DNA from: Deltaproteobacteria bacterium
Lineage (GTDB): Bacteria; Myxococcota_A; Polyangia; Fen-1088
Direction of reading: 5' to 3'
DNA: 64,000 nucleotides
Assembly (NCBI GenBank): GCA_033763315.1
Contig: JANRKS010000032.1
Location: 320,001 to 384,000 of the forward strand
Each line of letters starts with the position of its first letter. Position 1 is the stretch's first letter. Position numbers and translations under genes: made by a program. Of the stretch, positions 7,958 through 23,151 are shown one piece after another. The notes below the pieces were generated by a model. The model did not search any database. It saw only the letters and a list, made by a program, of their open reading frames with translations, and had not been told where the DNA came from.

Positions 7958-10477
7958 TTGCCCGCCGTGTCTTTCCTGAACCCTAAACTCACGCACCTAG
8001 GCGAACGTTACGAACTCAAAAGCCAAGCGGGCACGGGTGGCATGGGGACGGTGTTTTCCGCCTACGACCGCCTCACCCGCCAGATGGTGGCCGTCAAAGT
8101 GCTGCACGGCAAAGGCGACACCGACGCCGCACGCTTCGAACGGGAAGCCGAACTGCTGGCCGAGCTGCGCCACCCCGCGATCGTGCGTTTCATTGATCAC
8201 GGCACCACGTCGCACGGAGAACCCTATTATGTAATGGAGTGGCTGGAGGGTGAAACGTTGGATGAACGTTTGGCCCGCGGCACATTGATGCCCAGTTTGG
8301 TGGCGCGTTTGGGCGCGCGGGTGATGGAGGCGTTGACGGTGGCTCACGAAAAGGGCGTCATTCACCGCGACATCAAGCCGACGAATATCTTTCTTTCCGG
8401 TTACCGCGTGGCCGACGCTAAGGTGATCGATTTTGGTGTGGCTCGCAAAACGGATGATGCCTTTCGTTTAACAAAACGGGGCAACACCGTGGGAACGCCG
8501 ATGTACAACGCGCCCGAGCAGGCGCGCGGCAAAGGCGATCTGGATGGACGCGTGGATGTGTTCGCGCTGGGCTGCGTGATGTACGAGGCCCTCACGGGCG
8601 AGCCTGCGTTCGCGGGTGATTCGCCGGGGCAAGTGATGTCGCGCATCGCGGGCGGGCAAGGCCCCGACCTGAGCAAGCGCCTGGTGACGCTTGATTCCGA
8701 GTTAAAGATGGCCTTGGCCTCGATGCTTTCTCACAACCGTGAGGATCGCCCCTCCGATCCCGCGGCCTTGTCGAAAACATTGGCGGCGATCGCCGATCGT
8801 CTGGCGCCACTGGAAGTGCCGATCGTGCCGTCACACACAGCGAACGTGCCTCCCAAGCGCACGGGCAAAGACGCGCTTTCGCACAATGAGCAGCGTGTGA
8901 TGACCGTGCTTGTGCTGGCGCGCTTGAGCAACCTGCAAGAGCGGGACATCAACGCCAACGCAGCGATGCGCGCGAGTTTGCTTTCGGACGATGTGGTGGC
9001 GGTGCTGGCGACGCTGCTTGAACCTTATGGCGGCCGCGTGGATCGCTTGCTGGATCGATCGGTGATCGTCACGGCGCCGGCGCTGCCTTCGGTGACCGAA
9101 CAAGCGGAGCAGATCGGCCGCATGGGCCTGCAGGTTGTGTCACGCTATCCAGACCTTTCGGTGGCGATGGCCACGGGCCGCGCGGTGTTGTTGGCGCGTT
9201 TGCCTGCAGGAGAAGTGATTGAACAAGCGGCGATGCTGCTCGAAGGTGGGGCGCCGGGTGTGGTGGTGATGGACGACACCTCGGCGCGCTTGCTCGCGGG
9301 CCGCTTCAGTGTGCTGCACGAACGTTCACAGCACATTTTGATGAGCGAACGCGACGGCGGCCTATCGCCGCGCCGTATCTTGGGCGAAGTGACGCCGTTT
9401 TGTGGCCGCGAGCGCGAGCTCGCTTCGTTGACGGGGCTTTTGGCCGAGTGTGTGGCCGACGATGTGTCACGCGCGGCGGTGATCGTGGCGGGGGCGGGCG
9501 TGGGCAAAAGCCGCCTGTTGGCCGAATGGGTGCGCCGCATGCGCGCCACGGCCGAGGATGTGGTGGTGATGCGCAGCCGCGCGATCCCCTTGAACGTGCC
9601 GCAACCGTTTGCGGCGTTGGGCGGCTTCTTCGCACAAGCCAATGTGTCGCCCGATCTGGATCCGGCGATGGCAAGCGAAGTGTTGAGCGATTGGCTCAAG
9701 GCTGCGTGCAAACAGCAACCGGTGATCGCGATCTTAGAAGACGCCCACGTGGCCGACACCAGTAGTTTGCAGTTGCTGGACAGCTTGCTGGCCCGGCTTG
9801 AGACGTTGCCGTTCTTGGTGGTGCTGACCGCGCGCCCTGAACTGGATGAACGCCTTCCGGATCTGTTCGAATCGCGGGCCCCGATGCGCATGCGTTTGCC
9901 TCCGTTGGCGAAACGTCATGCCGAAGTGGCGCTGCGAGGCCTGTTGCCCACGAGCCGTCCGGATTTAGATGAATGGATCTTGTCGCGGGCGCGAGGCAAC
10001 GCGTTTTGCTTGGAAGAGCTCGCGCGCCATTCGTTGCTGCCGGGCCGCGCGACCCTGCCCGAAACGGTGCTCGGCTTGGTGCACGCGGAGCTTGATGTGT
10101 TGGGCGGCGAGGGCAAACGCTTGCTGCGGGCCGCGAGTGTGTTCGGCATGTCGTTCACCACGGCGGGTGTGGCCGCTTTGCTTGGCGAAGCCACAGCGCC
10201 GCTGCTGGAAGAGCTCCTGGCCGGCCTGGCCGAGCGCGGGTATCTTGAACACACCCCGTTGAGCCCTGATGGCGAGTGGCGTTTCGTGGAGCCCGTTGTC
10301 CGCGAAGTGGCCTACGACACGCTGCCCGGCAGCGATCGCATTTTGGGCCGCCGCTTGGCGCGCGCCTTCCTCAGCAACGAGGGCCACGCCATCCCCACGG
10401 CCTTGGCCCCCGGCGAATCAAAGACCGAGATGACGCCCAGCCAGCTGCCAGCTCTATCGTTCTTGGCGCGGCGTTAA
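7958..10477 (+). CDS. Ser/Thr kinase - degenerate cyclase-like - STAND/AAA ATPase, no C-terminal TPR region
   Basis: GTGGMGTV, HRDIKPTN, DFG, GTPMYNAPE; FCGREREL, Walker A AGAGVGKS, Walker B ILEDAH; GNAFCLEEL; ends shortly after VREVAYDTL. Confidence 0.88.
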   Translation: MPAVSFLNPKLTHLGERYELKSQAGTGGMGTVFSAYDRLTRQMVAVKVLHGKGDTDAARFEREAELLAELRHPAIVRFIDHGTTSHGEPYYVMEWLEGETLDERLARGTLMPSLVARLGARVMEALTVAHEKGVIHRDIKPTNIFLSGYRVADAKVIDFGVARKTDDAFRLTKRGNTVGTPMYNAPEQARGKGDLDGRVDVFALGCVMYEALTGEPAFAGDSPGQVMSRIAGGQGPDLSKRLVTLDSELKMALASMLSHNREDRPSDPAALSKTLAAIADRLAPLEVPIVPSHTANVPPKRTGKDALSHNEQRVMTVLVLARLSNLQERDINANAAMRASLLSDDVVAVLATLLEPYGGRVDRLLDRSVIVTAPALPSVTEQAEQIGRMGLQVVSRYPDLSVAMATGRAVLLARLPAGEVIEQAAMLLEGGAPGVVVMDDTSARLLAGRFSVLHERSQHILMSERDGGLSPRRILGEVTPFCGRERELASLTGLLAECVADDVSRAAVIVAGAGVGKSRLLAEWVRRMRATAEDVVVMRSRAIPLNVPQPFAALGGFFAQANVSPDLDPAMASEVLSDWLKAACKQQPVIAILEDAHVADTSSLQLLDSLLARLETLPFLVVLTARPELDERLPDLFESRAPMRMRLPPLAKRHAEVALRGLLPTSRPDLDEWILSRARGNAFCLEELARHSLLPGRATLPETVLGLVHAELDVLGGEGKRLLRAASVFGMSFTTAGVAALLGEATAPLLEELLAGLAERGYLEHTPLSPDGEWRFVEPVVREVAYDTLPGSDRILGRRLARAFLSNEGHAIPTALAPGESKTEMTPSQLPALSFLARR

Positions 10478-10579: not shown

Positions 10580-11737
10580 ATGTGGTCCCGCCTCGCTGCT
10601 ACCCGTCTCGCCTCTTTGGCCCATACCTTCCCCGCCGTTCTGGTTTTGGGGCCGCGCCAAGTGGGGAAGACTACGCTGGTGAGACAGACATTCCCTGACC
10701 ACCCCTACGTGGATCTTGAACGTCCGGTGCTCACGGATCTATTCGCCCAGGATCCCGAGTTTCATATCAAGGCCCGGGCCACTCCGAATCTCATATTGGA
10801 CGAGGCACAAGCGGTGCCGTCGGTGTTCGCGGCGTTGCGGGGCATTATCGACGAACAGCGAAAGCTAAACGGACGCTTTATCCTGCTGGGGTCGGCGCAG
10901 CCAATGCTTGTGCGAGGCGTTTCGGAATCGCTTGCTGGCCGTGTAGGCATTTTGGACTTGGCGCCTCTGACCGTTGCGGAAGTCTCAACCTTCGGGAACA
11001 TCGCCCCTGCGGATGTGTGGTTACGCGGCGGGTTCCCTGACGCCTTGGCCGCGGCGGATTTTCGAGTTTGGTGGGAATCGTATCTTCGCAGCTACCTCGA
11101 GCGCGATTTGCCCCAACTTGGATTGAACGTCGATCCCGTTTTTTTGCGACGTATGTTGACCATGCTGGCCCATAGCCAAGGGGGCGTGCTTAAGGTTTCA
11201 TCCCTGTGCAATTCGTTGGGCGTAAGCCGGGGCGTTGTGGAGCGATGCTTGGATGTCTTCGAGGGAACCTACATCCTGCGTCGTTTGCCGCCGTTTTTTC
11301 GTAACGTGGGAAAGCGGCTCGTAAAGGCGCCGAAGGTTTATCTTCGCGACTCGGGATTGCTGCATCACCTGCTGAACATCAGCAGCCAAAGTGAACTTGA
11401 TGCGCATCCCATCCGTGGCGCTTCATGGGAGACCTTTGTTCTCGAAGATCTGCTGCGCAGGGAACAACTGGCACATCCTTCGTCGCAAGCCTTCTTCTGG
11501 CGAACGGCCGCGGGCGCCGAAATCGATCTCGTTCTCGACCGAGGCAGCACCGTGGCGGTTGTGGAGATCAAGTCGGCCCAAGTCGGCAGTGCCCGCGACG
11601 TTCGGTTTTTGAGTGACGCCATGATCGATGTTGGCGCGAAGCAAGGATACTTTGTGGATCAAGGCCCTGATCGCTTTGCACTTGCACCACACATCGAGAG
11701 GCTGGGTTTTGAAGTGGCCAGCGCTTGGCTGCCGTGA
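10580..11737 (+). CDS. AAA_14/DUF4143-type ATP-binding protein
   Basis: GPRQVGKTT, ILDEAQ, LLGS, ESLAGR, RGGFP, KRLVKAPKVYLRDSG, EIDLV...EIK tail. Confidence 0.9.
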   Translation: MWSRLAATRLASLAHTFPAVLVLGPRQVGKTTLVRQTFPDHPYVDLERPVLTDLFAQDPEFHIKARATPNLILDEAQAVPSVFAALRGIIDEQRKLNGRFILLGSAQPMLVRGVSESLAGRVGILDLAPLTVAEVSTFGNIAPADVWLRGGFPDALAAADFRVWWESYLRSYLERDLPQLGLNVDPVFLRRMLTMLAHSQGGVLKVSSLCNSLGVSRGVVERCLDVFEGTYILRRLPPFFRNVGKRLVKAPKVYLRDSGLLHHLLNISSQSELDAHPIRGASWETFVLEDLLRREQLAHPSSQAFFWRTAAGAEIDLVLDRGSTVAVVEIKSAQVGSARDVRFLSDAMIDVGAKQGYFVDQGPDRFALAPHIERLGFEVASAWLP

Positions 11738-12525: not shown

Positions 12526-15500
12526 GTGCAGCCAGCACACACAAAGCCACGGCGTTTCGGTGGCCGCTTTGAGACCGAATATGAGGTTGGTCACGGCGGC
12601 ATGGGGGCGGTGTACCGTGCGCGCGACTTGCAGACGGGCCAGCCGGCGGCGGTAAAGGTGTTGTTCGAGCGCGAAGGGCCAAACGCGGAGCGCTTCGTGC
12701 AAGAGGCGGTGATGTTGGCGGAGCTTTCGCATCCGGCGATCGTGCGCTACCTGGGCCACGGCGTGGCGCCCTCGGGCGAGCATTACCTGGCGATGGAATG
12801 GCTTGAAGGCCGCACGCTCGAGGATTACCTGACGGGCGGCGCTGTGCCGGTGTTGCAAGCGGTGCAATTGACGGCGCGTGTGGTGGATGCGTTGGCGGTG
12901 GCACACCGGCGCGGCGTGGTTCACCGTGACATCAAGCCGGCAAACCTGCTGCTGCCGGAATCGCGCATCTCGCACGCGAAGCTGCTGGATTTCGGCATCG
13001 CACGGCGTTTGTTCGACACGCGCCGGATCACACGTACGGGCGCCACGCTGGGCACGCCGATGTACATGTCGCCCGAGCAAGCGCGCGGCTTGACCGACGT
13101 GGACGCGCGTTCGGACGTGTTCTCGATGGGCTGCGTGTTGTTCGAGTGTTTGGCGGGGCAGCCGCCTTTCACGGGTGAAACACCGTTGGCCGTGTTGGCG
13201 AAGATCTGCTTGGAAGTGGCGCCGGACGTGCGTCGTTTCCGCCCTGAAGTGTCACCGGCGTTGGCGGCGCTTGTACGGGGCATGCTGGAAAAAGACCCGG
13301 AAAAACGCCCGGGCGACACGGCCGAACTGGCACGCATGTTGGCGGTGATGGCCGATGAATTGCGTACGGGTGTGCCCGCCAACGATGGCCACGCGGCGGA
13401 TTACAAACCACTGCCGATCGTCACACCGGGCGAACAGCGTTTGTTCTCGGTTGTGTTGGTGCAGCTGCCACGCAAGGGACCAAAGCAAAGCCCTGCCAGC
13501 CGCAGCTCTTCAAGCTTGCTGGTGGCCACCACAAACATTACAGGCGTTGTGAATCCGCCCACGCCTGTGTCGCTCAAAGCGATTCGCGGCTTGTGGCGCA
13601 AGGGCGTAAACACACCGCTGCCGCCGACGCCCGGCGCCGCCACGCCGGGCGATATGCCGGCGGTGGAGAGCGAGCAACTGCCGCCGGATCTCTACGACGA
13701 TCAAGTGATGGCGCGCGTGCGCAAATCGGCTTTGCCGTTCGGCGTGCAAGTGGATCGCTTTTACAACGGCTCATTGGCGCTCACGAATGCGAACGGCGGC
13801 AGCAGCGCGGAGCAAACCTTCGAGATGGCCCGCTGCGCGCTTGAAATGCGGCGTTTGCTTCCTATGGCGGCGTTTGCTGTGGCCACGGGCCGCGCGGATG
13901 GCGACGCGCCGATGCCAGTGGGCAAGGTGCTGGAGCGCGCGGGCCGCTTGCTGGCGGGCGCACCACCCAGCGTGATTCGCCTCGACGATCTTTCACATGA
14001 ACTGCTGGCGAGCCGCTTTGAAACATCGGCGGTGCCGGGCGCGGATCAAGCGGCACGGTTGCTGTTTGAAAAAGGTTTGCGCGAGCCGCCGCGCACGTTG
14101 TTCGGCAAACCCACGCCCTGCATCGGCCGCGATCGTGAGCTTTCGAGCCTGCAAAGCCTGTTTGCCGAAGTGCTTGACGACAGTGTCGCACGCGCCGTAA
14201 TCGTCACAGCACCGGCAGGTGGCGGTAAATCGCGCGTTCGTCACGAATTGATGGAACGCCTTTACTCACGCGGCACCAACTTCTCGCTGCTGGCGGGCCG
14301 TGGTGAATCGATGCGTGCGGGCAGCGCGTGGTCGTTGCTGGGTGGCGCGCTTCGTGCGGCGGCCGACGTCAGTGGCTATGAAACGCTAGACGTGCAGCGC
14401 CTGCGTTTTGGTGCGTACTTCGGGCGTCGCTTCACAAAGCCAGAAGATCGCCAACGCGTGGTTTCGTTCTTGGGCGAGATCGCGAACATCCGTTTTCCAG
14501 ACGACGACTTTCCGATGTTGCGTTCCACGCGCCAAGATCCGCGCGCGATGGCAGATCAAACGCGCGCGGCGTGGCTCGATTGGGTGGAAGCGGAGCTGGA
14601 TCACGCACCGGTGGTGCTGGTGTTTGAGGATCTGCACTGGGGTGACGCGGCCACGTTTGGTTTGGTGGACGCGGCCTTGCGCCTTTACGCAGAGAAGCGC
14701 TTGCTTGTGATGGGCTTTGCGCGCCCCACACTCGACGAGAAATACCCGGGCCTGTGGAATGGGCGCAACGTGGAGCGTTTGGGTTTGCCACCGCTTTCCG
14801 CGAAAAACGCGCGGCGTTTGGTGCAAGCGGCGCTGCCCACGGCGAGCGATGAACAAGCCGATGCGCTGTGCGCGCGTGCCGATGGTAACCCCTTCTTTCT
14901 TGAAGAACTCTTGCGCGCTTCGGTTGAGCGCGGCAACGACGTGGCGCAAGCGTCGCCTGCCTCGATCCTCAGCATCATTCAAGGCCGCTTCGATAGCTTA
15001 GGCGATGGCGTAAAGCGTGTGCTGCGCGCGGCCAGCGTGTTCGGCATGTCCTTCCGCCGCAGCGGCGTGGGCACGCTGATCGGCGAGTCGAACCTCAAAG
15101 ACGTTGAAGAGTATCTGGATGTGCTAGTGGCGCGCGAAATTGTGTACCGCCGCGCCTCGGGTTCGGGGCGTGAGTACATGTTCCGGCACGCGTTGGTGCG
15201 CGAGGCCGCGTACGACACGCTGACGGATCGCGATCGCAAGGTGGGGCACTTACTTGCGGGTGAATTCTTAGAGCGCCTCGGCGCTGAGAACCCAGGCGAG
15301 TTGGCAGAGCACTTCGAATGCGCCGAGGAGATGAAGCGCGCGGGCCACTGGCATTACGTGGCGGGGCAACGTGCGCTGGCGTCGGTGGAGTTAGAGAATG
15401 CGATCAAGCACTGCGAACGCGCGGTGAAGTGCGGCGTGGAGGGGGAAGAGCTGGGGTTGGTGAAGTTGTTGGAGGCGCGGGTGCAGATCTGGAGGGCCAA

Positions 15501-16572
15501 CTACGAAGATGCTCGCTTAGCCGGAGTGGAGGCGACGAAGGTGCTCGATGGCGTTGCCAACATGGAGGCTTGGGGAGAGGTAGTGGTAGCCCTCGGCCAT
15601 CTTCGATGGGACATGTTTCAGAACGAAAATGAAGAGGCATACCTCGAAGCGCTCCAGCGTCTTCAGCAACATGTATCAAAGGATTTAGGATGGGCAATTT
15701 GGGCGCGCAGTGTACTTCGCGCTTGTTCGTTTTGGGCCGCTGCGCAACAAGCTAGCGACGCACTCAACTCTTCCGGGTTGTTGGCAGAGGCATTAGCCTC
15801 CGCCGAGCCAGCTGTCTCAGCATCAGCTTCTTGCTTTCAATACTACGTCATGTGTCGCCTCCGTAGATGGGAGGAGGCGGAGCATCATTGCCATAGGGCT
15901 GTCGCTTGTTTTGAAGCCGCTGGCAACTTTCAGGAAGCGGCCTCGAATCAGCTCAATTTGGTAAGTTACTTGGCCGATCTCGCACGTTATGACAAGGCGC
16001 TTTTGTGTGCAGAAGAGTGCCTCCGAAAAGTACGCAAAAATGGAATTCCATTCCACGAGAGTCTGGCCCTCGCGAACTTAGCTGACATCTATTGGGAACT
16101 AGGTCGAGTAGATGACTCAGCGAGGGCTGCCCTGGAAGCTTGCGACCTGGCACAGCGGCACGGCATTCTCCGGGTTGCCGTTTTTGGATGGGTTGCGGCC
16201 GCGCGAGCACTTTCGGAGCAAGGGCGTCACGATGAAGCGCGGTGCCTTCTGTTAAAGGCAAAGGACGGGTCGAACGGAAGTCCGGAACTGCATGCATTTC
16301 TGAGCGCGGTTCAAGGCATGGAATATTTGGCGCAAAGTCAGTTGTTGCTCGCCGTGGCCTGTGCACATGACGCCGCTGTTGCCCTTTGTGCGGATTCTGT
16401 CCAGCAGCTATTCGTCAGGGTTGCAATCGCAACAATACAAAAGACCTGCGGCAGCCCAGCGGCCTTTGAGTCCGCAGTTGCTGAGGCGCAGAACTTTCAA
16501 TCGTTATTGTCCCCGCCGAACGACGACACGTGTCGGTGCGAGTCGTTCAAGCGGCTTAGACGGCTATTGTAG
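12526..16572 (+). CDS. Ser/Thr kinase - degenerate cyclase-like - STAND/AAA ATPase - TPR-like protein
   Basis: GHGGMGAVY, HRDIKPAN, DFG, GTPMYMSPE; [45 protein letters not shown]; helical repeats at C-terminus (ALANLADIYWELGRVDDSA). Confidence 0.92.
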   Translation: MQPAHTKPRRFGGRFETEYEVGHGGMGAVYRARDLQTGQPAAVKVLFEREGPNAERFVQEAVMLAELSHPAIVRYLGHGVAPSGEHYLAMEWLEGRTLEDYLTGGAVPVLQAVQLTARVVDALAVAHRRGVVHRDIKPANLLLPESRISHAKLLDFGIARRLFDTRRITRTGATLGTPMYMSPEQARGLTDVDARSDVFSMGCVLFECLAGQPPFTGETPLAVLAKICLEVAPDVRRFRPEVSPALAALVRGMLEKDPEKRPGDTAELARMLAVMADELRTGVPANDGHAADYKPLPIVTPGEQRLFSVVLVQLPRKGPKQSPASRSSSSLLVATTNITGVVNPPTPVSLKAIRGLWRKGVNTPLPPTPGAATPGDMPAVESEQLPPDLYDDQVMARVRKSALPFGVQVDRFYNGSLALTNANGGSSAEQTFEMARCALEMRRLLPMAAFAVATGRADGDAPMPVGKVLERAGRLLAGAPPSVIRLDDLSHELLASRFETSAVPGADQAARLLFEKGLREPPRTLFGKPTPCIGRDRELSSLQSLFAEVLDDSVARAVIVTAPAGGGKSRVRHELMERLYSRGTNFSLLAGRGESMRAGSAWSLLGGALRAAADVSGYETLDVQRLRFGAYFGRRFTKPEDRQRVVSFLGEIANIRFPDDDFPMLRSTRQDPRAMADQTRAAWLDWVEAELDHAPVVLVFEDLHWGDAATFGLVDAALRLYAEKRLLVMGFARPTLDEKYPGLWNGRNVERLGLPPLSAKNARRLVQAALPTASDEQADALCARADGNPFFLEELLRASVERGNDVAQASPASILSIIQGRFDSLGDGVKRVLRAASVFGMSFRRSGVGTLIGESNLKDVEEYLDVLVAREIVYRRASGSGREYMFRHALVREAAYDTLTDRDRKVGHLLAGEFLERLGAENPGELAEHFECAEEMKRAGHWHYVAGQRALASVELENAIKHCERAVKCGVEGEELGLVKLLEARVQIWRANYEDARLAGVEATKVLDGVANMEAWGEVVVALGHLRWDMFQNENEEAYLEALQRLQQHVSKDLGWAIWARSVLRACSFWAAAQQASDALNSSGLLAEALASAEPAVSASASCFQYYVMCRLRRWEEAEHHCHRAVACFEAAGNFQEAASNQLNLVSYLADLARYDKALLCAEECLRKVRKNGIPFHESLALANLADIYWELGRVDDSARAALEACDLAQRHGILRVAVFGWVAAARALSEQGRHDEARCLLLKAKDGSNGSPELHAFLSAVQGMEYLAQSQLLLAVACAHDAAVALCADSVQQLFVRVAIATIQKTCGSPAAFESAVAEAQNFQSLLSPPNDDTCRCESFKRLRRLL

Positions 16573-16685: not shown

Positions 16686-16708
16686 TTGACCATCGTCAAT
16701 TTTTTGAC
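16686..16708. promoter_or_regulatory. Triple half-site operator candidate TTGAC-N4-GTCAA-N4-TTGAC
   Basis: Two overlapping inverted repeats 85-107 nt upstream of the small ORF. Confidence 0.5.
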
Positions 16709-16792
16709 TTGCCAAAGTAGGCCAACGGATGGTCTGATAACGGCACTCGGGTTCTAACCAAACCTGAACCAATCACCCAACCAGGAGTGGCC

Positions 16793-16867
16793 ATGAAAAT
16801 TAAGAGTAAGTCCGGCGTACGAGCTGGCGGATTAACGTCAAGCAATCACAACCGTACCCTTTTGTAG
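16793..16867 (+). CDS. 24-aa peptide MKIKSKSGVRAGGLTSSNHNRTLL (putative signal or RiPP-like precursor)
   Basis: AGGAG RBS 16783-16787, ATG 16793, TAG 16865-16867, terminator 19 nt downstream; below the ORF-track cutoff. Confidence 0.75.
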   Translation: MKIKSKSGVRAGGLTSSNHNRTLL

Positions 16868-16886
16868 TTCCTAGGCAGCTGGTGGG

Positions 16887-16912
16887 AGGCCCCTACGGGG
16901 GCCTTTTTCTTG
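16887..16912 (+). terminator. Intrinsic terminator after the peptide gene
   Basis: AGGCCCC-TACG-GGGGCCT stem with UNCG tetraloop, then TTTTCTT. Confidence 0.85.
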
Positions 16913-17025
16913 TTTCCTTAGCTGTAGGCAAATGGGTGCACAGGTGCGTCACGCAGTGTGAACACCTGCCCGCCGCTTTATGGTTCCCCGCTGCCGTCTG
17001 CAGATCTCAGCGGCCCTAGAAGATT

Positions 17026-17704
17026 TCACTTTTTTGCGCTTCTGGCACCTAACCACGAGTCGGTGTCGCCTCCAATGTCGAAAGCGCGCGCGAAAATGCC
17101 ATCGATGTCCATCACCGCGCCAGCCTGCAGGGTGAGTCGCTCACCGGCCCCCGCTGAGCGGTACGTCCAAGTGCCTCCGTCATCCCGCCCGAAGTGCTCG
17201 ATTCTGGCCTCGGTTTGCGACACCAGGACGTAGTCGCGAAGAGACGCAAGGCGCTGGTAGCCGTCCGACTTGAGGCCACGATCGTACGATTCCGTGGATG
17301 CCGACAGCACTTCCACGATTACCTGAGGGTTCACAAGCACGTCGTTGGTGCCGGTCTCTAATTCGGGCGGGCCGCAAACGACGCTAAGGTCGGGATAGAC
17401 GTACCGTTCACCCGCCAGCGCCACCTTCTGGTTGGAAGAAGACGAAACAGCCCTTGTCGTCCAGCGCCGCACTTAGCGCCGCGCTCACTCGGGCGGTAAG
17501 CAAATTGTGGCGAGGGGTTCCGCCGGCCATCGCGAACACTCCGCCGCGGAAATACTCGTGACGCCCGGACCGGGACCGCTCCCAATCTAGGTATTGAGCA
17601 GGCGCGAATTCTGACTTTTCCACGAGGCGCGTCCCGAACGAAAGGTACCACAAGGGTCTTCTGCCGATTCGGGACGTTGGTGCCGGATCCTCAGCTAGGT
17701 TCAA
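17026..17704 (-). pseudogene. Uma2/DUF820-family endonuclease, frameshifted near 17440
   Basis: N-half YLDWER..RHEYFRGGVFAMAGGTPRHN and C-half YPDLSVVC..IVEVLSASTESYDRGLK..YVLVSQ lie in different frames; start uncertain. Confidence 0.8.
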
Positions 17705-17771: not shown

Positions 17772-19190
17772 ATGAGCATGCCTGACGCCACTGATGCCGC
17801 ATTGTCTGCCTCCACGGAAGTGGGCGGGGGCGCGGCTACGAGCGCCGCCACCGCGGTGCTGGTACCGGCTGGCAATGCGGCCTTGGGGGGGCGAACGCGC
17901 TCTGAACTAGGGGCGGCGCCGCCGTTCAGCGTGGGTAGCCAAGGGGTGCTTTTCGGGCGGAAACCGCATGGGCACGCGCCGCATGTGTTTGCGCTTTCGC
18001 ATCCGCAGGCTTCGGGCCAGCACGCATGGATTCGTTCTGTGGAAGGTTTCTGGCTGGCTGACAACAACAGCACCAACGGTACGTTTCTCAACGGCCGGAG
18101 GTTGTCGGCTCCCGCGCCTTTGCGCGACGGCGATTGGATCTATGCGGGCGGCGAGGCGTTTGTGTTTCGCTGGGCCAACCCGCAGGAGCTTGAGGCCATT
18201 GATGGCGAGCTGTTGCAGCCGTTTGGTCCGGTGCCCACGCGGCAACCGCGGTTCGCACGTCTGTTGCGTCGTTTGCGCTTTTTGGCGGAGACCACAAGCG
18301 AGCTGCTGTTGGTGGGCGAAACGGGGGTGGGCAAGGAAGTGTATGCGCGCGCGGTTCACGAATACAGCCAACGCAAAGGCGCATTCGTTGCCATCAATTG
18401 CGCGGCCATTCCTGCTGAATTGGTGGAAAGCGAACTGTTCGGCTTCATGCGCGGCGCGCACTCGCAGGCGAAAGAGGGCAAGGCCGGTGTGATCGCCGAA
18501 GCCCATGGCGGCACGTTGCTGTTGGATGAAATTGGCGACATGCCCGCCACCGCGCAAGCCAAGCTGCTGCGGTTCGTGCAAACCAAAGAGGTTTGGCCTT
18601 TGGGCGCCACCAGTGCACGCAAAGTGGACGTGCGCATCATTGGCGCCACCAGCCACTTGCTTGCCCAAACAGGTGCCCCCGGTGTGCGAGAAGAATTGAT
18701 GGCACGCCTTGGCGCCAACCCGCCTGTGTTGCCACCCTTGTGTGATCGTCGCGAAGACATCGGCGAATTGATCGCCCACTTCATGGGAAAGGCAGTCAAG
18801 CCCATCGACGCCGCTGCCTTTCTGGCCTTGATGACATACCCCTGGCCCCGCAACGTGCGCGAGCTTGAGGCCGTGATCAAAGAGGCATTGGTGTTCAGCA
18901 AAGGCGAAGCCACTGTGACGCGTGAACATCTGCCACCCTTTGTCACGCAAGCGACACCACCCACAGCTCCACAAACTGTGGCACCTCCGCCGCAGATGCG
19001 CCCCGTGGCGCCCACCGAAGAAGTACGCCGCGTGCCTCGCGCAATGCCTTCAAGAGAAGAGCTAGAGGCTTTGCTGGAGCAATACCGCGGCAACGTGAAT
19101 CACGTGGCCCGCAAGCTAGAGCGCGAGTGGAAGGTTGTGAAACGCGCGGTAGATCGATACGGAATCGATCTCACTCGGTTTCGCACGTGA
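17772..19190 (+). CDS. FHA-domain sigma54-type enhancer-binding protein (FHA-AAA-HTH)
   Basis: FHA motifs FGR, SGQHA, DNNSTNGTFLNG; GETGVGKE, AINCAAIP, ESELFG, LLLDEIG, WPRNVREL; C-terminal Fis-like HTH. Confidence 0.93.
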   Translation: MSMPDATDAALSASTEVGGGAATSAATAVLVPAGNAALGGRTRSELGAAPPFSVGSQGVLFGRKPHGHAPHVFALSHPQASGQHAWIRSVEGFWLADNNSTNGTFLNGRRLSAPAPLRDGDWIYAGGEAFVFRWANPQELEAIDGELLQPFGPVPTRQPRFARLLRRLRFLAETTSELLLVGETGVGKEVYARAVHEYSQRKGAFVAINCAAIPAELVESELFGFMRGAHSQAKEGKAGVIAEAHGGTLLLDEIGDMPATAQAKLLRFVQTKEVWPLGATSARKVDVRIIGATSHLLAQTGAPGVREELMARLGANPPVLPPLCDRREDIGELIAHFMGKAVKPIDAAAFLALMTYPWPRNVRELEAVIKEALVFSKGEATVTREHLPPFVTQATPPTAPQTVAPPPQMRPVAPTEEVRRVPRAMPSREELEALLEQYRGNVNHVARKLEREWKVVKRAVDRYGIDLTRFRT

Positions 19191-19194
19191 CGTT

Positions 19195-22100
19195 TTACAA
19201 GAGCAAGACGCGCAGGTCCGGCGTATTCAAGTCGATGCCCAGCTCGCGCGCTTGCCGAACAACGTCTCGGTTTTCGGGGATGTTGTGCAAGTAGGTGAGT
19301 TGGTACTTGGGCGCGGTGATCCTGGTCGTGAGGTGGGCAAGGCGTTGGGCATTGCCTCGTGCAGTGGCGACGGCGTCTTCGTGGCGGCCGACGGCTAGAA
19401 GGCAATCGACGTAGGTGGAGCGGGCGAGCATTTCGCCGTCCATGAGTGGCTTCTTTGCGAATACCGCCTCCATAGCGACGCGGGACATGGCTATGGCGGA
19501 CGTGATTTGCCTCGAAGCCAAGAGAACTTTTGCGCGTACGGAAGCCGCGAGAGGAACAAACGCAGTATGATTTTTGGAGGCCTCGACACTCTCGGCCGAA
19601 GCAAGCTGGGCGCTCGGAACATCACCGAGGTTAAGATAGGCCTGCGCCATGACGGCCATGCAGTACCAGATGTTGTCGCCGTTGCATTCGCGCAACTTGC
19701 TTAGAACACTGTGGCCCTCTCTCAAGGTGCGTCCAGGATCACCGGTTCGAAGATAGATTGCGAGTAGATTTGCGTCCACACCCAGTTGAAGCGAGAGCAA
19801 GTTGAGTGACAGGGTCTTTTGCCGGATCTGGTTCAGACCATCCTGGGCTCCTCGATAGTCTCCAAGATCAGCAAGGGCGACGGACGCGTAGAAATCAGCG
19901 TTGAGTTCATATTTCAAATCTCCCGCCGATCGAAAAGCTGCGACGGCCTGGGTGAACGCGGTGATTGCTTTGAGTGGATCACCACCAGATAAGATTCTCG
20001 TACCGTCTGACACGAGCCAGTGACCGAGAGTGCATTCGTCGAGCGTCTCCGTCCGAAATTGCAACAAAAAGGCCATTGCTGGCTCATCGCCCAAGAAAAT
20101 GCACGCAGTTACTGCCGCCGCAAGAGCTTTCTGCGTATCCAATGCCGCCAGGCTGTCTAGCTCAGCTGACAGCCGTGTTGCGAAGGTCACGGCATCTCGA
20201 TGTTTGCTGAGGTTGATGAGGCACACCATAAAATGCAAGTACCCGGTTCTAGCGGCGTTTGGCGGCAACCGGTTGAAAGCTTCATGAAAGTAGTTTTCGG
20301 CTTGCTCGAAGTCTCCTCTCCAAGTGAGGGCTTCGGCTTGCAGCATTCTCAGCGAGCCGTGTAGTTCTCCTTGAGCACCGTTTGCCAACCCGCGCTGTCC
20401 GAATGCGATGGCCTGATTGACATCCGCCCCAGCCATTGCGTCCTTCGCGGCTGCGCAGCACCACAGTGCTGCCTTGTCGCCGCTGCCGCCTTGTTCAAAA
20501 TGCTCGACGAGTTCAGAAGGAACAGGAGGGAACGAATCAGCCTCTAACCATAGCCCTGCGGCCAAGTGTGCGGCTTTCCGATCTGCTTGAGTGATCATGT
20601 CGTAGGCTGCATCGCGCAATAGCGCGTGGCGAAATGCAAATTCATTCTGGTCGTTATGCTCCCGCATATAGATAATTTCCTTGTCCGATAGGAGATCAAG
20701 GGATCGCTCTATTGACGTCGAGGCGTCAGGCTTAAGAAGAGCGTTCAAACCCGCAAAGGCGAACCGTTCACCAAACACGCTGGCTGCGCGAAGTACTCGC
20801 TTGGCCTCCTCGCCCAGTGCATCAAACCGCGCTTGGATGACGCCCAACACACTGCTCGGCGCGGCGTCTTCACGCTCCAATGCTGAGCGCACATCCTGCG
20901 CGCGGAGCAACTCTTCCAAGAAAAATGGGTTACCATCGCAGTGCCGCGTAAGCCGCGCCACAAGCTCTGGCGCCGCCTCCGGCAGAACCTCACTTACGAG
21001 CTGTGTGAGCGCGCTGGCTGGGAGCGGGCGCAAGTTCACGTGCTCAAGCGACCGGGCTCTCCACAACCTTGGAAAGCGCATCTCGATCTCTGGCCGAGCA
21101 AACGCTGCCACGAATATTGGCCGATCGCGATAGACGCGCATCGCATCGTCGATTGCCTGAACGCTCGGAGAATCACCCCAATGAAGATCTTCTAGCACGA
21201 GCACCAAGGGCTCGTCTGCAGACACATGCTTCACGAACTCAAGCCACGCGAGCTTCGTTTGATCGCCCATGACGTGGGGATCTTTTCGGGCCGTCTGAAG
21301 CGATAAGAGGCCATCGTCTGAGAATGGCACACCCATCAATTCGCCCAAAAACGCAATCGTGCGGCGCTTGTGTTGCGGATCTGACTCTGATTCGTGGATG
21401 TGCCTGCCAATGTGCTTCAGAACCAGTGCCTGCTGTGTTGTTCGATCTTCGCTTCCGTGGATCTGTGCCTTCGAACGCAGCAGCGCCGCGACCACGCCGA
21501 GCGGCGCGTTGCTGCGCAACGGATCACCGCGCGCGATCAAGAAGTGAAGGCTGGGACGCTGGGCCTGCAGCGCTTGCATGAGCTCGAACCGGACGCGTGA
21601 CTTGCCACCGCCTGCGGGTGCCGTGACCAATATCGCGCGTGCCCCTGGTTCAATTACACATTCAGCAAAGATGGCTTGCAGATTGGCGAGTTCGCGCTGC
21701 CGGCCGACGCATGGCAAGACTTTGCCCAGCACCGTTCGTGGCGGTTCGAGTGAGTGCCGCTCTGCCTGCAACGTGAATACTTCGCCTTCTTCCGTGAGCT
21801 TCGATGCCACCTCGAACCGAGCTTGCAGCAGCGCCGCCACCGTTTCATCCACGCGGATCTCACCCTCTTGCGTTGAGCTTAGAAGTGCGGTGGTCACGTC
21901 AGCCAGATCTTGGTTACCGACGTCACTGAATTTGCGGCCCAGCCCTAGAGCGAACCGGCGATCTCCTGAAACTGTTCTAAGTGCCAACGCGCAACGGCCC
22001 GCATTCACCGCTTGATCCATCGGCGAATCTCCCGGCACCGTAACGAGCACCGTGCCGCCCAACAAGGTTTGCGCGCTTTTGGTCCAGGGCGCCACGCGCG

Positions 22101-23151
22101 ACAGAGTTTCTGAGACTTGCGTGGTCACAGGATGTTGATCGACTTCGCTACTCGCAGGTGAGATCAGTAGCAGTGCGTGCACGCGCCGTTCACCCGAGCC
22201 AATGCTTGACGGTTGCTGACGCGGCGGGGCCTCAGGGCGTGCAAGCAAGGTTGGTAGTACCCGTTCGAGGTTTTGCACCACAAGTTTTGCGTTGGGTGTA
22301 CGGCGTTCGCGATCTTTGAGCAGCAAGCCCGCGAGCACGTCCTGCAGGCCTGGATCAACGTCAGGGCACAGTTGAGCCAATGGCACATGATCGCTAAAAC
22401 AAATCTTTGCCAGCGTTGCCAACGCAGAATCGCCCACGAACAAAGGCTTTGCGAGCAAACACTCAAGCAGCACGCAGCCCAACGAAAACAGGTCGGCACG
22501 CCCATCGAGATCAGCTTCACCGCGCGCCTGTTCGGGCGCCATATACATCGGCGTGCCCACCCAGTGGCCCGTACCTGTGACACGCAGAAAATCAACGTGA
22601 CGGGCGATCCCGAAATCAAGCACCGTGACTTGATTGAGATCGTCATCCACCACCATGAGGTTTTCCGGCTTGATGTCGCGGTGAATGATGCCGTTGGCGT
22701 GCGCCATGGCCAAAGCCGAAGCCACGCGCATACCCACGCGCGCCGCATCCGCTTGTGACAGGGGCCCCTGCCGCAAGCGTTGCTTCAAGGTTTGCCCGCG
22801 CAGCAGAGCTGTGGCCACATAGCGCTCACCCGCTGCACTGACGCCATGATCGATGTAGGCCACGATCGCAGGGTGCGAGAGCGTGGCCAAAAGCGCGCCC
22901 TCGCGCGAGAACCGCTCCGCCAGGCCGGTGCCAGCGAAGATCTTCAGCGCCACATCGTGGCCCGTGGCGGTGTCCTCGGCCACCACAACGTGCCCCGACG
23001 AACCGCTGCCTAAGGCACCGCGCACACGAAAGCGGTCGGCGAATAGAGTGCCCGCCGCCAGCAGCCGCCCCAACGGCGCATGCCGCACGTCGGCCGGCTC
23101 TGTGCCTGCTGTGCCAGTCGTTCCGCGCTCGGGTATGACGAGCCGTGCCAC
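19195..23151 (-). CDS. Ser/Thr kinase - degenerate cyclase-like - STAND/AAA ATPase - TPR-like protein
   Basis: [20 protein letters not shown]; [45 protein letters not shown]; helical repeats in C-terminus. Confidence 0.92.

Follow-up and report, generated by a model that had tools for sequence, protein, structure and literature searches.

Several described systems come close to the locus reported here. In the RRNPP cassettes of the Bacillota (Rap-Phr, PlcR-PapR, and NprR-NprX), a peptide gene sits beside the gene for a cytoplasmic TPR receptor, and the peptide leaves the cell by Sec export and, once re-imported in its mature form, is bound by that receptor. Known double-glycine (GG) leaders have a hydrophobic residue at position -4 and a helical hydrophobic pattern at -4, -7, and -12, and class II microcins are exported by an architecture composed of a C39-peptidase ABC exporter (PCAT) and an HlyD-type fusion protein. 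Tandem-repeat pro-peptides are represented by the yeast alpha-factor, by Kex2-processed repeat proteins of fungi, and by the multi-core cyanobactin precursor PatE, and multi-core RiPP precursors in general have a leader-plus-core layout with several cores, which the repeats described below resemble. Curli CsgA and HET-s provide points of comparison for beta-solenoid functional amyloids and amyloid signalling, and FHA domains read phospho-threonine. BASS motifs are described as K-depleted and as present on both the NLR and its neighbouring protein, and no Bell domain is reported in Myxococcota (10.1101/2020.01.06.895854). The PCAT HetC of Nostoc is reported to be tied to cell differentiation (PMC10986499).

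Here we describe a 24-codon gene which, judged by its matches within its own genome and beyond it, is the one-unit and shortest form of a previously undescribed family of repeat peptides, here called "KAGG-NHN," which occurs in uncultured Polyangia (Myxococcota). Its product is probably a secreted signal or weapon and not a chance frame.

Results

A 24-codon gene conserved in three species

In the window (the whole 64,000-nucleotide stretch of DNA that was analysed), an ATG at 16793 opens a coding frame of 24 codons (16793-16864, MKIKSKSGVRAGGLTSSNHNRTLL) that ends at the stop codon TAG (16865-16867). An unlisted 24-aa gene with its own ribosome-binding site and terminator had been proposed here by the sequence-only reading, and the frame, the AGGAG, and the hairpin are indeed all present. 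The interval given for it from 16783 holds a real gene, but 16783 is the ribosome-binding site and the start codon lies at 16793. The ORF list carries the same frame from an upstream GTG, at 16787..16867. The signals of the gene are as follows:

16783..16787, + strand: ribosome-binding site AGGAG, 5 nt ahead of the ATG, as read in the sequence
16793..16867, + strand: 24-codon gene with its stop, encoding MKIKSKSGVRAGG followed by LTSSNHNRTLL
16884..16917, + strand: intrinsic terminator with a 10-bp stem, a UACG loop, and a T-run

Residues 1-13 form a putative double-glycine leader, and residues 14-24 are the putative released peptide LTSSNHNRTLL. The terminator stem (16884-16907) comprises 10 base pairs, of which 6 are G-C, around a loop of 4 bases, and is followed by TTTTTCTTGTTT. 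Its loop, described earlier as a UUCG-class hairpin, is UACG closed by C-G and so belongs to the UNCG class. The predicted fold energy is -28.4 kcal/mol (z -2.85), with 2 of 200 shuffles equally stable. The terminator is real; the terminator scan by itself returned 1 site against a shuffle mean of 1.3, which is not above chance. Both orthologues have unrelated G+C-rich hairpins with a U-run at this place (-41.5 kcal/mol, z -7.15, and -33.8 kcal/mol, z -3.53).

These orthologues, of 24 and 25 aa, were found in two sister species (MKNVKTKSGVRAGGFALNHNRGLL, L038:9889-9960, and MKNVKVKSGVKAGGLGTVNHNRGLL, L105:11158-11232 on the minus strand), where they lie about 200 bp downstream of the orthologous kinase gene, the same place as in the window. 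In a three-species alignment, both retain the AGGAG/AGGAT core together with a CA-rich leader. Third positions of codons account for most of the differences, and the two indels consist of whole codons. Synonymous sites are saturated (pS 0.63-1.05) while pN is 0.14-0.26, and dN/dS is 0.11 for the single pair with a finite dS. On this comparison, the ORF is a real gene under purifying selection and not a chance frame, and it is the conservation in the sister species that raises the finding above chance. With orthologues in both sister species and matches to the family HMM, the homologue search bears out the real small ORF that had been claimed, and the gene is presumably translated.

Gene callers overlooked the gene and its orthologues. 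The exact peptide sequences of all three are absent from a collection of 15 billion proteins, which is why the window gene counts as unlisted. An Rfam search of the window gave nothing at gathering level, and near the gene only two sub-threshold matches were obtained (Atu_C8, 21.3 bits against 50).

Upstream of the gene, two elements could be placed:

16695..16723, + strand: conserved element GTCAATTTTTTGACTTGCCAAAGTAGGCC, which contains the palindrome GTCAA-N4-TTGAC; no other intergenic stretch is as well conserved across the three aligned species
16742..16755, + strand: GGCAC-N5-TTCT, a -24-like element without the -12 GC, a weak candidate that is not conserved in the orthologues

The GTCAATTTTTTGACTTGCCAAAGTAGGCC element may be an operator or part of a promoter. 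The conserved TTGACTTGCC was weighed as a -35 or a -12 element and set aside, as no partner element could be placed at the proper spacing. A sigma-70 consensus scan found no promoter for the peptide gene in any of the three species, and a strict sigma-54 scan of the window gene reached 5/10 at best (TGGTCTGATAACGGCA), with no conserved -24/-12 element in the orthologues.

The KAGG-NHN repeat-peptide family

The window peptide matches six tandem units on contig C21 and five on contig C35 of its own genome. The full paralogues on these contigs have six units each (6x21 aa on C21 and 6x18 aa on C35), and a fourth copy, on C38, reads KAGR in place of KAGG and keeps KAG and NHN. The family unit is 14-26 aa long and follows the pattern [LI]K[VI]K..VKAGG-x3-5-NHNR, in which N-H-N is invariant and the stretch between GG and NHN is hypervariable. 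In a six-frame genome search, the window peptide matched the family HMM at E 9e-06. Most members repeat the leader-like segment from 2 to at least 8 times. Neither the tandem-repeat nature of the family nor its sigma-54 control had been noticed in the earlier reading.

Of 89 genomes belonging to one Polyangia family, 47 carry members, as does 1 of 300 genomes from elsewhere in the phylum, with up to 7 family matches per genome. The protein database holds 972 relatives, and the named ones are all hypothetical proteins except for two evident mislabels. The earlier statement that similar KxKxxVxAG...NHN peptides occur as hypothetical proteins in other bacteria is correct by both counts. Three database homologues stand under the NCBI name "Polyangia bacterium," two of them identical to peptides of loci L108 and L048, and a search of the contigs of named genomes with the C21 protein gave no match. 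Pfam and NCBIfam returned no family for the 24-mer at E values up to 10, and none over cut-off for the 115- and 133-aa paralogues. The best profile match was Gly-zipper_YMGG (27.6 bits against a cut-off of 28.9), which was taken to reflect composition only. A literature search at the level of titles and abstracts returned no description of the family.

The GG is not evenly kept along the proteins. With 2 of 120 proteins (QHNR variants) omitted as they fall outside the regular expression, the first unit contains GG in 106 of 118 proteins, compared with 146 of the 205 later units (Fisher p 8e-5), such that 29% of later units are without it. In the members inspected, the first GG falls at residues 13-25; that of the window peptide occupies residues 12-13.

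Kinase genes, sigma-54 activators, and sigma-54 sites

The genes around the window copy were assigned with Pfam:

12526..16572, + strand: Ser/Thr kinase of 1348 aa with an AAA_16 (STAND-type) domain and TPR at the C-terminus, its gene ending 220 bp upstream of that of the peptide
17026..17472, - strand: Uma2-family endonuclease, between the peptide and EBP genes
17772..19190, + strand: FHA-domain sigma-54 enhancer-binding protein (EBP; FHA and Sigma54_activat), a member of the module
19195..23151, - strand: second kinase of the Pkinase-AAA_16-TPR architecture (1318 aa), whose gene and the EBP gene are convergent

The pairing of this 1348-aa kinase with the peptide gene is conserved throughout the three species of the genus, always in the same orientation. 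The Uma2 gene is probably an insertion outside the module, because in another genome (G002) the distance between the peptide gene and the EBP core is 210 bp, too short for a further gene to fit between them. Both six-unit paralogues have homologous EBPs beside them, and at all three kinase-linked loci of this genome an FHA-EBP gene is found within 1.4 kb.

Across the family, a kinase domain is encoded within 5 kb of 32 of 43 peptide genes against a chance expectation of 16.5%; in the subset retrieved ahead of any selection, the count is 11 of 18. Among ten partner kinases of about 870-930 aa, eight have one hydrophobic helix directly after the kinase domain, an arrangement by which the TPR part of these kinases would face outside the cytoplasm. 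No membrane helix was predicted after the kinase domain of the 1348-aa kinase, and an exported peptide could not reach the TPR of the window kinases, which are without a predicted membrane helix, unless it were re-imported. A cassette of peptide gene and TPR-bearing kinase would fit the idea, raised earlier, of a ligand for the adjacent TPR receptor.

The genome has rpoN (contig C6) and 52 EBPs. In 679 kb of loci we found 52 strong -24/-12 sites, and 23 of these lie within 260 bp upstream of peptide genes, a zone that makes up 0.8% of the search space. When upstream regions were scanned (27 non-duplicate regions of at least 150 bp, with an M start and no N), 14 scored at least 8/10, against a shuffle mean of 1.2 and 0 on the reverse strand. 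A site of at least 9/10 precedes 23 of 43 family genes, or 4 of 18 in the unselected subset. A canonical promoter of the family reads TGGCACG-N4-CTGCA, and in this genome the site of both six-unit paralogues is TGGCA(C/T)-N5-(T/G)TGA, with no -12 C.

Linkage to C39-peptidase exporters

At least 16 of 83 contig-level peptide loci have a C39-peptidase ABC gene 1.3-11.2 kb away, against about 1.2% by chance; the count comes from a hand cross-match of the peptide and C39 tables and is a lower bound. Fourteen of these 16 loci were fetched, and tblastn confirmed the C39 distance in all 14. Among fetched loci as a whole the C39 count is biased, because loci L089-L108 were chosen mostly for a C39 match on the same contig; where no such selection was applied (the window and L035-L050), 3 of 18 genes are C39-linked. 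The other 67 of the 83 loci have no C39 gene on the same contig, many of the contigs being short, and in one genome (G001) a four-unit gene and the pump lie on different contigs. Taken together, the family is linked non-randomly with kinases, sigma-54 promoters, and PCATs, with p-values that overstate the case because loci of related genomes are not independent.

In the genome of the window, a full PCAT lies 6.6 kb from the six-unit paralogue on C21, in an HlyD-PCAT-ABC2 operon, and an orthologous PCAT lies 7.4 kb from the peptides of G129, the sole genome outside the Polyangia family to have them. The pumps, frames of 898-1311 aa, come together with a second ABC protein lacking the peptidase domain. 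Their C39 domain (about residues 1-165 in the C21 PCAT) can be aligned with PCAT1 (4ry2/8vp3, E 2e-10) and with ComA. The residues aligned to the QxxxxDCG, HFVV, and DP motifs of PCAT1, which we take to be the catalytic Gln, Cys, His, and Asp of C39, are invariant in 13 orthologues, and by this alignment the catalytic residues of the PCAT are intact. Two genera in which 0 of 24 genomes have peptides keep the PCAT-ABC2 pair, with no peptides or kinases nearby in the three loci inspected. We had considered a PCAT clade specific to peptide carriers, and dropped it as genera without peptides have the pump too.

The proposal that GG marks a leader end gains support from this linkage of the family, elsewhere, to C39-peptidase ABC exporters. 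The earlier reading was right that the window copy has neither an exporter nor a modifying enzyme nearby: the closest full PCAT sits on a different contig, and 212 kb separate the copy from a C39-like frame of 200 aa. The 13-residue window leader falls at the short end of what counts as a GG-ended leader (roughly 15-30 residues). Compared to known GG-leader profiles, no Pfam or NCBIfam leader HMM matched. Position -4 of the leader is K or R, and its hydrophobic residues alternate as in a strand. A complex prediction of the C39 domain with residues 1-48 of the C21 paralogue gave scores of 0.02 and 0.15 against a mark of 0.32 and, with the controls not folded, bears on neither side.

Discussion

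A possible export and signalling route

Our main reading, to which we give a probability of roughly one half, is that of a double-glycine peptide which is cut and exported by a C39 pump and coupled to kinase signalling. The Lys-rich 13-residue N-terminus ending in Gly-Gly would serve as a double-glycine leader, and a dedicated PCAT, for this genome that of the HlyD-PCAT-ABC2 operon on C21, outside the window, would cut after the GG and export the remainder. Cleavage at the GG and export would leave, for the window gene, a product of about 11 residues, LTSSNHNRTLL. The exported peptide would act as a cue coupled to the TPR-bearing Ser/Thr kinase encoded beside nearly every family member. The neighbouring FHA-domain sigma-54 activator would read the output of the kinase and, in most pump-near loci, would drive the peptide gene from its -24/-12 promoter, closing an autoinduction loop. 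We infer the TPR binding, the feedback loop, and a signalling role over a killing role.

A more far-reaching version, which we hold only tentatively, treats the multi-unit proteins as polyprotein-like tandem-repeat pheromones. The two-ABC PCAT would cut at each repeated KAGG, kinases with TPR ectodomains or of the STAND type would sense the products, and FHA sigma-54 activators would feed back. The 24-aa gene would be the minimal form, and the numerous private cassettes of kinase and peptide in a genome, distinguished by the hypervariable tetrapeptide before NHNR, would define kin- or lineage-specific "pherotypes" among these multicellular bacteria.

Alternative explanations

The peptides could instead be cationic bacteriocin- or microcin-like antimicrobials, exported through PCAT and HlyD, with the kinases and sigma-54 activator only regulating their production. 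They are strongly cationic, with almost no acidic residues; their genes are multi-copy and fast-evolving, with a hypervariable segment separating GG from NHN; and the PCAT and HlyD-type fusion protein of the C21 cluster match the export architecture of class II microcins. We nevertheless regard a killing role as rather unlikely, given that no immunity-like gene was recognised (small membrane ORFs fell outside the systematic search), that the predicted window product has only 11 residues, and that almost every copy, pump-distant satellites included, has its own adjoining kinase gene, an arrangement typical of signal-receptor cassettes and not of toxins. The repeats also invite a structural explanation, a beta-solenoid or amyloid-like fibre with each unit as one rung (strand, GG turn, strand, NHN turn). 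Multi-unit proteins would fold or stack into cationic fibres, one-unit peptides such as that of the window would extend, seed, or cap these stacks, and GG would be a turn and not a cleavage site. Within a protein the units keep a regular length (18, 21, or 26 aa), with conserved Gly and Asn and with hydrophobic residues that alternate with Lys. The C38 copy and the 29% of later units noted above do without GG and keep KAG and NHN. The ESM Atlas model of the C21 paralogue (pLDDT 0.66) falls near beta-solenoids (SufBD core, ice-nucleation protein, and Gly-rich phage proteins), neighbours that score at most 0.89 by features and are to be taken as leads only. AlphaFold models are all-beta repeats, and a beta-solenoid fold of the multi-unit forms is weakly predicted, but mean pLDDT is low (48.8 with 11 sequences and 54.3 with 64). 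A stacked lysine ladder would be electrostatically unfavourable without a polyanion, and GG is better conserved in the first unit than in later ones, both of which count against the fibre. As to the amyloid-like signalling motif suggested by the sequence-only reading, in the NLR sense, the described bacterial motifs are K-depleted and occur on both NLR and neighbour (10.1101/2020.01.06.895854), whereas the units here are Lys-rich and are repeated neither on the STAND kinase nor on any other protein of the genome. The family HMM, run over all six frames of the genome, found only the four peptide loci at E < 0.1 and nothing in a kinase or EBP frame. As such, the suggested motif is not borne out, and we consider the fibre explanation improbable.

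The peptide might also never be exported, and would then work inside the cell on the neighbouring STAND-type kinase and FHA activator, whether as modulator, as pseudo-substrate, or as TPR ligand. In favour of this, the partner kinases of the genus have no predicted membrane helix, no pump is near the window copy, and in the three species the peptide gene comes after the kinase gene on the same strand; Ser/Thr-rich N-termini are also common in the family. However, Thr is conserved at no position of the unit, so a phospho-Thr link to the FHA domain has no fixed site, and for that reason we dropped a phospho-Thr site as a candidate. The family-wide linkage to a C39 exporter with intact residues and the predicted outside-facing TPR of the kinases in other genera would both be left unexplained, and we give intracellular action slightly lower odds still than the fibre. 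A RiPP precursor, with NHN(R) modified by enzymes encoded elsewhere and the repeats as multiple cores, would fit the leader and core layout, the multi-core look, and the invariant N-H-N. We think it very improbable, as no NCBIfam precursor model matches and as a Pfam scan of 33 neighbour proteins from five sets of loci (kinases, EBP, TPR, PCAT, ABC, HlyD, CBM9+DUF5916, Fic, GH31, SDR, and others) showed neither a known tailoring family, such as radical SAM, YcaO, or LanM, nor an RRE protein. A local RiPP cluster at the window copy was dropped, no enzyme being found. The least credible explanation, to which we attach hardly any weight, is a chance ORF or a conserved feature that is in truth a non-coding RNA. 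The ORF is very short and the terminator scan alone does no better than shuffles, but the pattern of change by codon position, the whole-codon indels, and a peptide conserved over saturated synonymous sites argue for coding, as does homology to long tandem-repeat ORFs, and no Rfam match speaks for an RNA.

Implications

If the proposed route of PCAT cleavage, export, and kinase sensing holds, it would give the first Myxococcota peptide-export and signalling module to join PCAT, eukaryote-like Ser/Thr kinases, and sigma-54 control, and to our knowledge the first known bacterial case of unmodified tandem-repeat pro-peptides. The pheromone version, if true, would amount to a peptide-pheromone system unlike any described in bacteria. 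Should the units form cationic solenoid fibres instead, they would represent a new type of secreted amyloid. The loci offer testable pairs of peptide and pump and of peptide and kinase, in social bacteria whose intercellular signals are mostly unknown, and an HMM of the unit would allow hundreds of unannotated or mis-started genes to be called.

Comparison with known systems

For HetC, we know of no kinase or sigma-54 module. HetC resembles the pump described here in being the PCAT of a multicellular Gram-negative bacterium that is proposed to export a developmental peptide and not a bacteriocin, and it differs in belonging to another phylum and in its unrelated substrate families. With amyloid and BASS systems, the family has in common G-, N-, and V-rich units some 20 residues long, encoded beside a STAND NTPase with TPR, and solenoid-like predicted models. 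In contrast to those systems, the motif is not on the STAND protein, the units are K-rich, and fold confidence is low.

The RRNPP cassettes are alike in that a peptide gene adjoins a TPR signalling gene, in the many paralogous cassettes per genome, and in the variable short core. Unlike in those cassettes, the TPR here belongs to a Ser/Thr kinase (STAND-type or single-pass membrane) and is not fused to an HTH or phosphatase, export is likely by PCAT and not by Sec, the hosts are Myxococcota and not Bacillota, and the pairing is known from gene adjacency. Tandem-repeat pro-peptides likewise have several near-identical units per gene, each with a putative processing motif and a variable core; here the host is bacterial, the search turned up no tailoring enzymes, GG stands in place of KR or protease signatures as the putative processing motif, and the window member has a single unit.

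The GG-leader peptides of PCATs, which include the class II bacteriocins and microcins and the streptococcal CSP/ComAB system (pumps PCAT1, 4ry2 and 8vp3, and ComA, 8hf4), share with the family a short N-terminal segment that ends in GG and is followed by cargo. They also share the link to a C39-ABC pump whose catalytic residues appear to be kept, with an HlyD-type partner in this genome. The family departs from them in a leader that is Lys-rich, strand-like, without a leader-HMM match, and repeated in most members, and in long pumps paired with a C39-less ABC protein. It would also be regulated by Ser/Thr kinases and a sigma-54 activator in place of a histidine kinase and response regulator.

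Structure and conservation of the 24-codon gene

The AGGAG ribosome-binding site, 24 codons and hairpin terminator described in the sequence-only reading are all present in the window:

16695-16713: conserved element GTCAATTTTTTGACTTGCC, upstream of the peptide gene and kept in orthologues
16783-16787, plus strand: ribosome-binding site AGGAG, 5 bases before the ATG
16793-16867, plus strand: 24-codon frame MKIKSKSGVRAGGLTSSNHNRTLL read from the window sequence, ATG at 16793, stop at 16865-16867
16884-16907, plus strand: terminator with a 10-bp stem (6 G-C pairs), a UACG loop and then TTTTTCTTGTTT, 17 bases past the stop

The hairpin has a fold energy of -28.4 kcal/mol (z -2.85). Because the terminator scan returned 1 site against 1.3 in shuffles, the window hairpin alone is not above chance. 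No Rfam family matched at the peptide gene, and no convincing sigma-54 or sigma-70 promoter was found for it by consensus scans or orthologue alignment. Elsewhere in the window, ARAGORN calls a tmRNA at 55322-55512 on the plus strand (tag ALTAHSSTRSARIPA); this is probably a false call, since an Rfam scan of the whole window returned no tmRNA or other family at gathering level.

Conserved homologous small ORFs, one of the points on which the sequence-only reading was to be judged, occur at the same site in both sister species of the genus, where they encode 24 aa (MKNVKTKSGVRAGGFALNHNRGLL) and 25 aa (MKNVKVKSGVKAGGLGTVNHNRGLL). In each case the orthologue of the 1348-aa kinase gene lies upstream in the same orientation, about 200 bp away. 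The codon alignment contains two indels, both of whole codons, and yields pS of 0.63-1.05 (synonymous sites saturated) with pN of 0.14-0.26; dN/dS is 0.11 for the sole orthologue pair with a finite dS. The three-species alignment also shows conservation of the AGGAG region and of a CA-rich leader, and a strong hairpin with a U-run stands 3' of each orthologue, although the hairpin sequences are unrelated. The exact peptides of the window gene and its orthologues are absent from a 15-billion-protein collection and have therefore been missed by gene callers. We put the probability that the 24-codon frame is a real, selected gene at roughly 90%.

A tandem-repeat peptide family

When the window peptide was searched against its own genome, a single frame on contig C21 gave six tandem matches, and contig C35 gave five. 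The C21 paralogue (134 aa) has 6 units, each 21 aa long (...SGAKAGGLTSMNHNRALVKAA...), and the C35 paralogue (115 aa) has 6 of 18 aa (KSGVKAGGFRTNHNRVLV). The window gene is thus one unit of a tandem-repeat family. A whole-genome HMM scan added a fourth copy, an orphan one-unit peptide MKKVGAIKVTSGLKAGRIALNHNRGLI in which KAGR replaces KAGG; either it is decaying or it can do without the double glycine (GG), the putative leader end:

G000:C38:58250-58333 (= L113:10251-10334), minus strand: 27-aa one-unit peptide in the source genome, with an AAGGAG ribosome-binding site and a hairpin plus U-run terminator

Its neighbours are unrelated (an aldolase, an aldo-keto reductase and parts of an ABC sugar or amino-acid transporter). 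A second genus likewise has one-unit genes, coding for a 32-aa peptide in G092 and G097.

A search with the C35 protein, run on 24 further genomes of the taxonomic family and on 16 from 13 other families of the class, matched 11 and 0 of them, respectively. The profile of the family, A1, matched 47 of 89 genomes of the taxonomic family, in 10 of 19 genera and with up to 7 matches per genome, most genomes compared being fragmented MAGs. Among 300 other genomes of the phylum, only G129 matched, with variant units of 14-16 aa that end in NHG or NHS:

L106:10127-10690: divergent G129 array (about 8 units, each 14-16 aa: LRVRSAVRAGGSYNHS...); an orthologous C39-peptidase-containing ABC exporter (PCAT) is 7.4 kb away

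This array also lies less than 1 kb from kinase and sigma-54 enhancer-binding protein (EBP) matches, so the module exists outside the main taxonomic family. A large protein database held 972 relatives at E <= 0.001 among 8000 scored candidates, three of them labelled 'Polyangia bacterium' by NCBI. The named ones are all 'hypothetical' except two evident mislabels, in agreement with the earlier suggestion that similar short peptides occur as hypothetical proteins. No Pfam or NCBIfam model matches the family, and no description of it was found in the literature, as judged from titles and abstract openings.

The unit conserves an alternating [LI]K[VI][KR]..[VI]KAG(G) strand together with N-H-N(R). 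Variation falls in the 3-5 residues that separate KAG(G) from NHN and in the few that follow NHNR, where even the three orthologues differ (LTSS / F-AL / LGTV). The GG is kept in 106 of 118 first units versus 146 of 205 later units (p 8e-5), the pattern that an essential cut at the first GG would produce.

Kinase and EBP neighbours

The window gene is flanked by the following genes (domains from Pfam):

10580-11737: DUF4143/AAA_14 ATPase gene
12526-16572: Pkinase-AAA_16-TPR protein (1348 aa)
17026-17472, minus strand: Uma2-family endonuclease gene, between the peptide gene and the EBP gene
17772-19190: FHA-domain sigma-54 activator
19195-23151: second Pkinase-AAA_16-TPR kinase

The Uma2 gene looks like a recent insertion, because in G002, a related genome, the EBP core is only 210 bp from the peptide gene. 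Four Ser/Thr kinase genes (304-2517, 7958-10477, 12526-16572 and 19195-23151) fall within one 23-kb part of the window; three carry the STAND-type AAA_16 domain, and the 839-aa kinase has no Pfam TPR match.

The trio of STAND-type kinase, peptide and FHA-EBP recurs at both six-unit paralogues, and with 117 kinase domains and 52 EBPs in the 7.6 Mb of the source genome, density does not account for it. Of the 43 peptide genes or arrays in 37 fetched loci, 32 have a kinase domain at most 5 kb away. The second batch of these loci was selected, and 33 neighbouring proteins were annotated. Among the 17 loci fetched prior to selection, the count is 11 of 18 genes (expected 16.5%); the p-values overstate the significance, because related loci are not independent. 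In other genera the partner kinase is about 870-930 aa long, and 8 of 10 such kinases have, by hydropathy only, one hydrophobic segment (residues 343-399) after the kinase domain, so that the TPR half would face outward. In two related genomes, multi-unit arrays have a 408-aa Fic/DOC protein encoded about 340 bp away (L103:12465-13688 in G097; L104:11999-13222 in G092).

Promoters of the peptide genes

The 679 kb of loci contain 52 strong -24/-12 sites, defined as at least 9/10 to TGGCAC-N5-TTGC and typically of the form TGGCACG-N4-CTGCA. Twenty-three of them lie on the same strand within 260 bp upstream of a peptide gene, a zone that makes up 0.8% of the space searched. A looser sigma-54 scan found sites in 14 of 27 upstream regions, versus a shuffle mean of 1.2 and 0 on the opposite strand. 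Just 4 of the 18 genes in the unselected subset are preceded by a strong sigma-54 site, and therefore promoter type varies.

Two further upstream elements were seen. The motif CGTCCGAAT(T/C)(T/G)GCGGATGG is common to L040, L042 and L048 (G012:C54, G012:C85 and G021:C180). It stands between the divergent kinase and peptide genes, some 95 bp ahead of the latter, in three regions that yielded no sigma-54 site, and may be a different promoter or operator class. The six-unit paralogues of the source genome have TGGCA(C/T)-N5-(T/G)TGA, with the -12 C missing. The longer form, TTGGCA(C/T)G-N4-T(T/G)GAAGTAG, is common to six-unit paralogues of the genus and stands about 90 bp before the start at L035:9660-9680 (C21), L036 (C35) and L037 (related genome G001). 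With a perfect -24 box and GA in place of GC at -12, it is a candidate for a non-canonical sigma-54 promoter.

Linkage to a C39-peptidase exporter

A 910-aa C39-peptidase ABC transporter with an HlyD-type partner lies 6.6 kb from the C21 paralogue, and a C39 search was positive in 81 of 89 genomes of the taxonomic family. By a hand cross-match of the places found by the peptide and C39 searches in these 89 genomes, which gives a lower bound, a long C39-ABC frame lies 1.3-11.2 kb from at least 16 of 83 contig-level peptide loci, in at least 16 of 47 carrier genomes (chance about 1.2%). Distances were confirmed by tblastn in 14 fetched loci of the 16.

The linked PCATs are unusually long, with frames of 898-1311 aa and about 200 residues between the C39 and membrane domains. 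After them in the recurrent block comes a second ABC protein of about 680-740 aa without a C39 domain, which suggests a heterodimeric pump, and the block also holds a 405-435-aa TPR protein. A CBM9 + DUF5916 protein of about 850 aa in the block may be an outer-membrane part of the system; 14 of 43 peptide genes have it no more than 5 kb away, often as the direct neighbour:

L035:482-3211, L090:12165-16097, L100:3947-6832 and others: long linked PCATs
L039:6910-9432, L089:3609-6182 and 12 other places: CBM9 + DUF5916 protein

PCAT1 and ComA both align to the C39 domain (E 2e-10 to 4e-6), and 13 orthologues show no variation at the residues matching the PCAT1 QxxxxDCG, HFVV and DP motifs; we take these to be the oxyanion Gln and the catalytic Cys, His and Asp. 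Three observations speak against the link. The pump pair is kept in two genera where 0 of 24 genomes carry the peptides, with no peptides or kinases near it in the 3 loci examined. In G001 the four-unit gene and the pump are on different contigs. The window copy has no pump within the contig neighbourhood, just as the sequence-only reading had it.

Possible function and comparison with known systems

The family is linked non-randomly to TPR kinases, FHA-EBPs, sigma-54 promoters and a PCAT with intact catalytic residues. In the window peptide, the Lys-rich 13-mer ending in GG would be a leader, which the C21 PCAT would cut to export a peptide of about 11 residues; multi-unit forms would give longer cargo or several exported units. 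We slightly favour PCAT processing of the family peptides over its absence. The exported peptide would be a cue for the neighbouring kinase, acting through an outside TPR in most genera, and the kinase would in turn act through the FHA-EBP on the sigma-54 promoters of peptide genes. Signalling, the leading reading of the family's purpose, is a more tentative prediction, which we hold to be somewhat less likely than not. In the window genus, where the kinases look cytoplasmic, the peptide would act after re-import or from inside, and one main rival takes the window peptide to be an intracellular kinase modulator.

The other main rivals are a secreted cationic antimicrobial and a solenoid or fibre subunit. 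AlphaFold predicts beta-rich repeats at low confidence (pLDDT 48.8 with 11 sequences, 54.3 with 64), and the structural neighbours of the ESM Atlas model (pLDDT 0.66) are beta-solenoids, so the units may form a solenoid or fibre. The amyloid-like signalling motif proposed earlier was not borne out. A whole-genome HMM scan found the family motif on no other protein of the source genome, and the units are K-rich, whereas passages of a preprint describe NLR-type amyloid-signalling motifs as K-depleted and its effector domain as missing from Myxococcota (10.1101/2020.01.06.895854). As far as those passages go, the NLR-type reading is not supported.

The family fails sequence tests for known GG-leader families and differs from GG-leader/PCAT peptides in that its leader-like units are reiterated, it is wired to kinases and sigma-54, and its pump has two ABC proteins; we therefore do not assign it to any named family. 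In its mode of action it would come closest to the double-glycine peptides that PCATs export, and the logic of its cassettes is similar to that of TPR-receptor pheromone systems.
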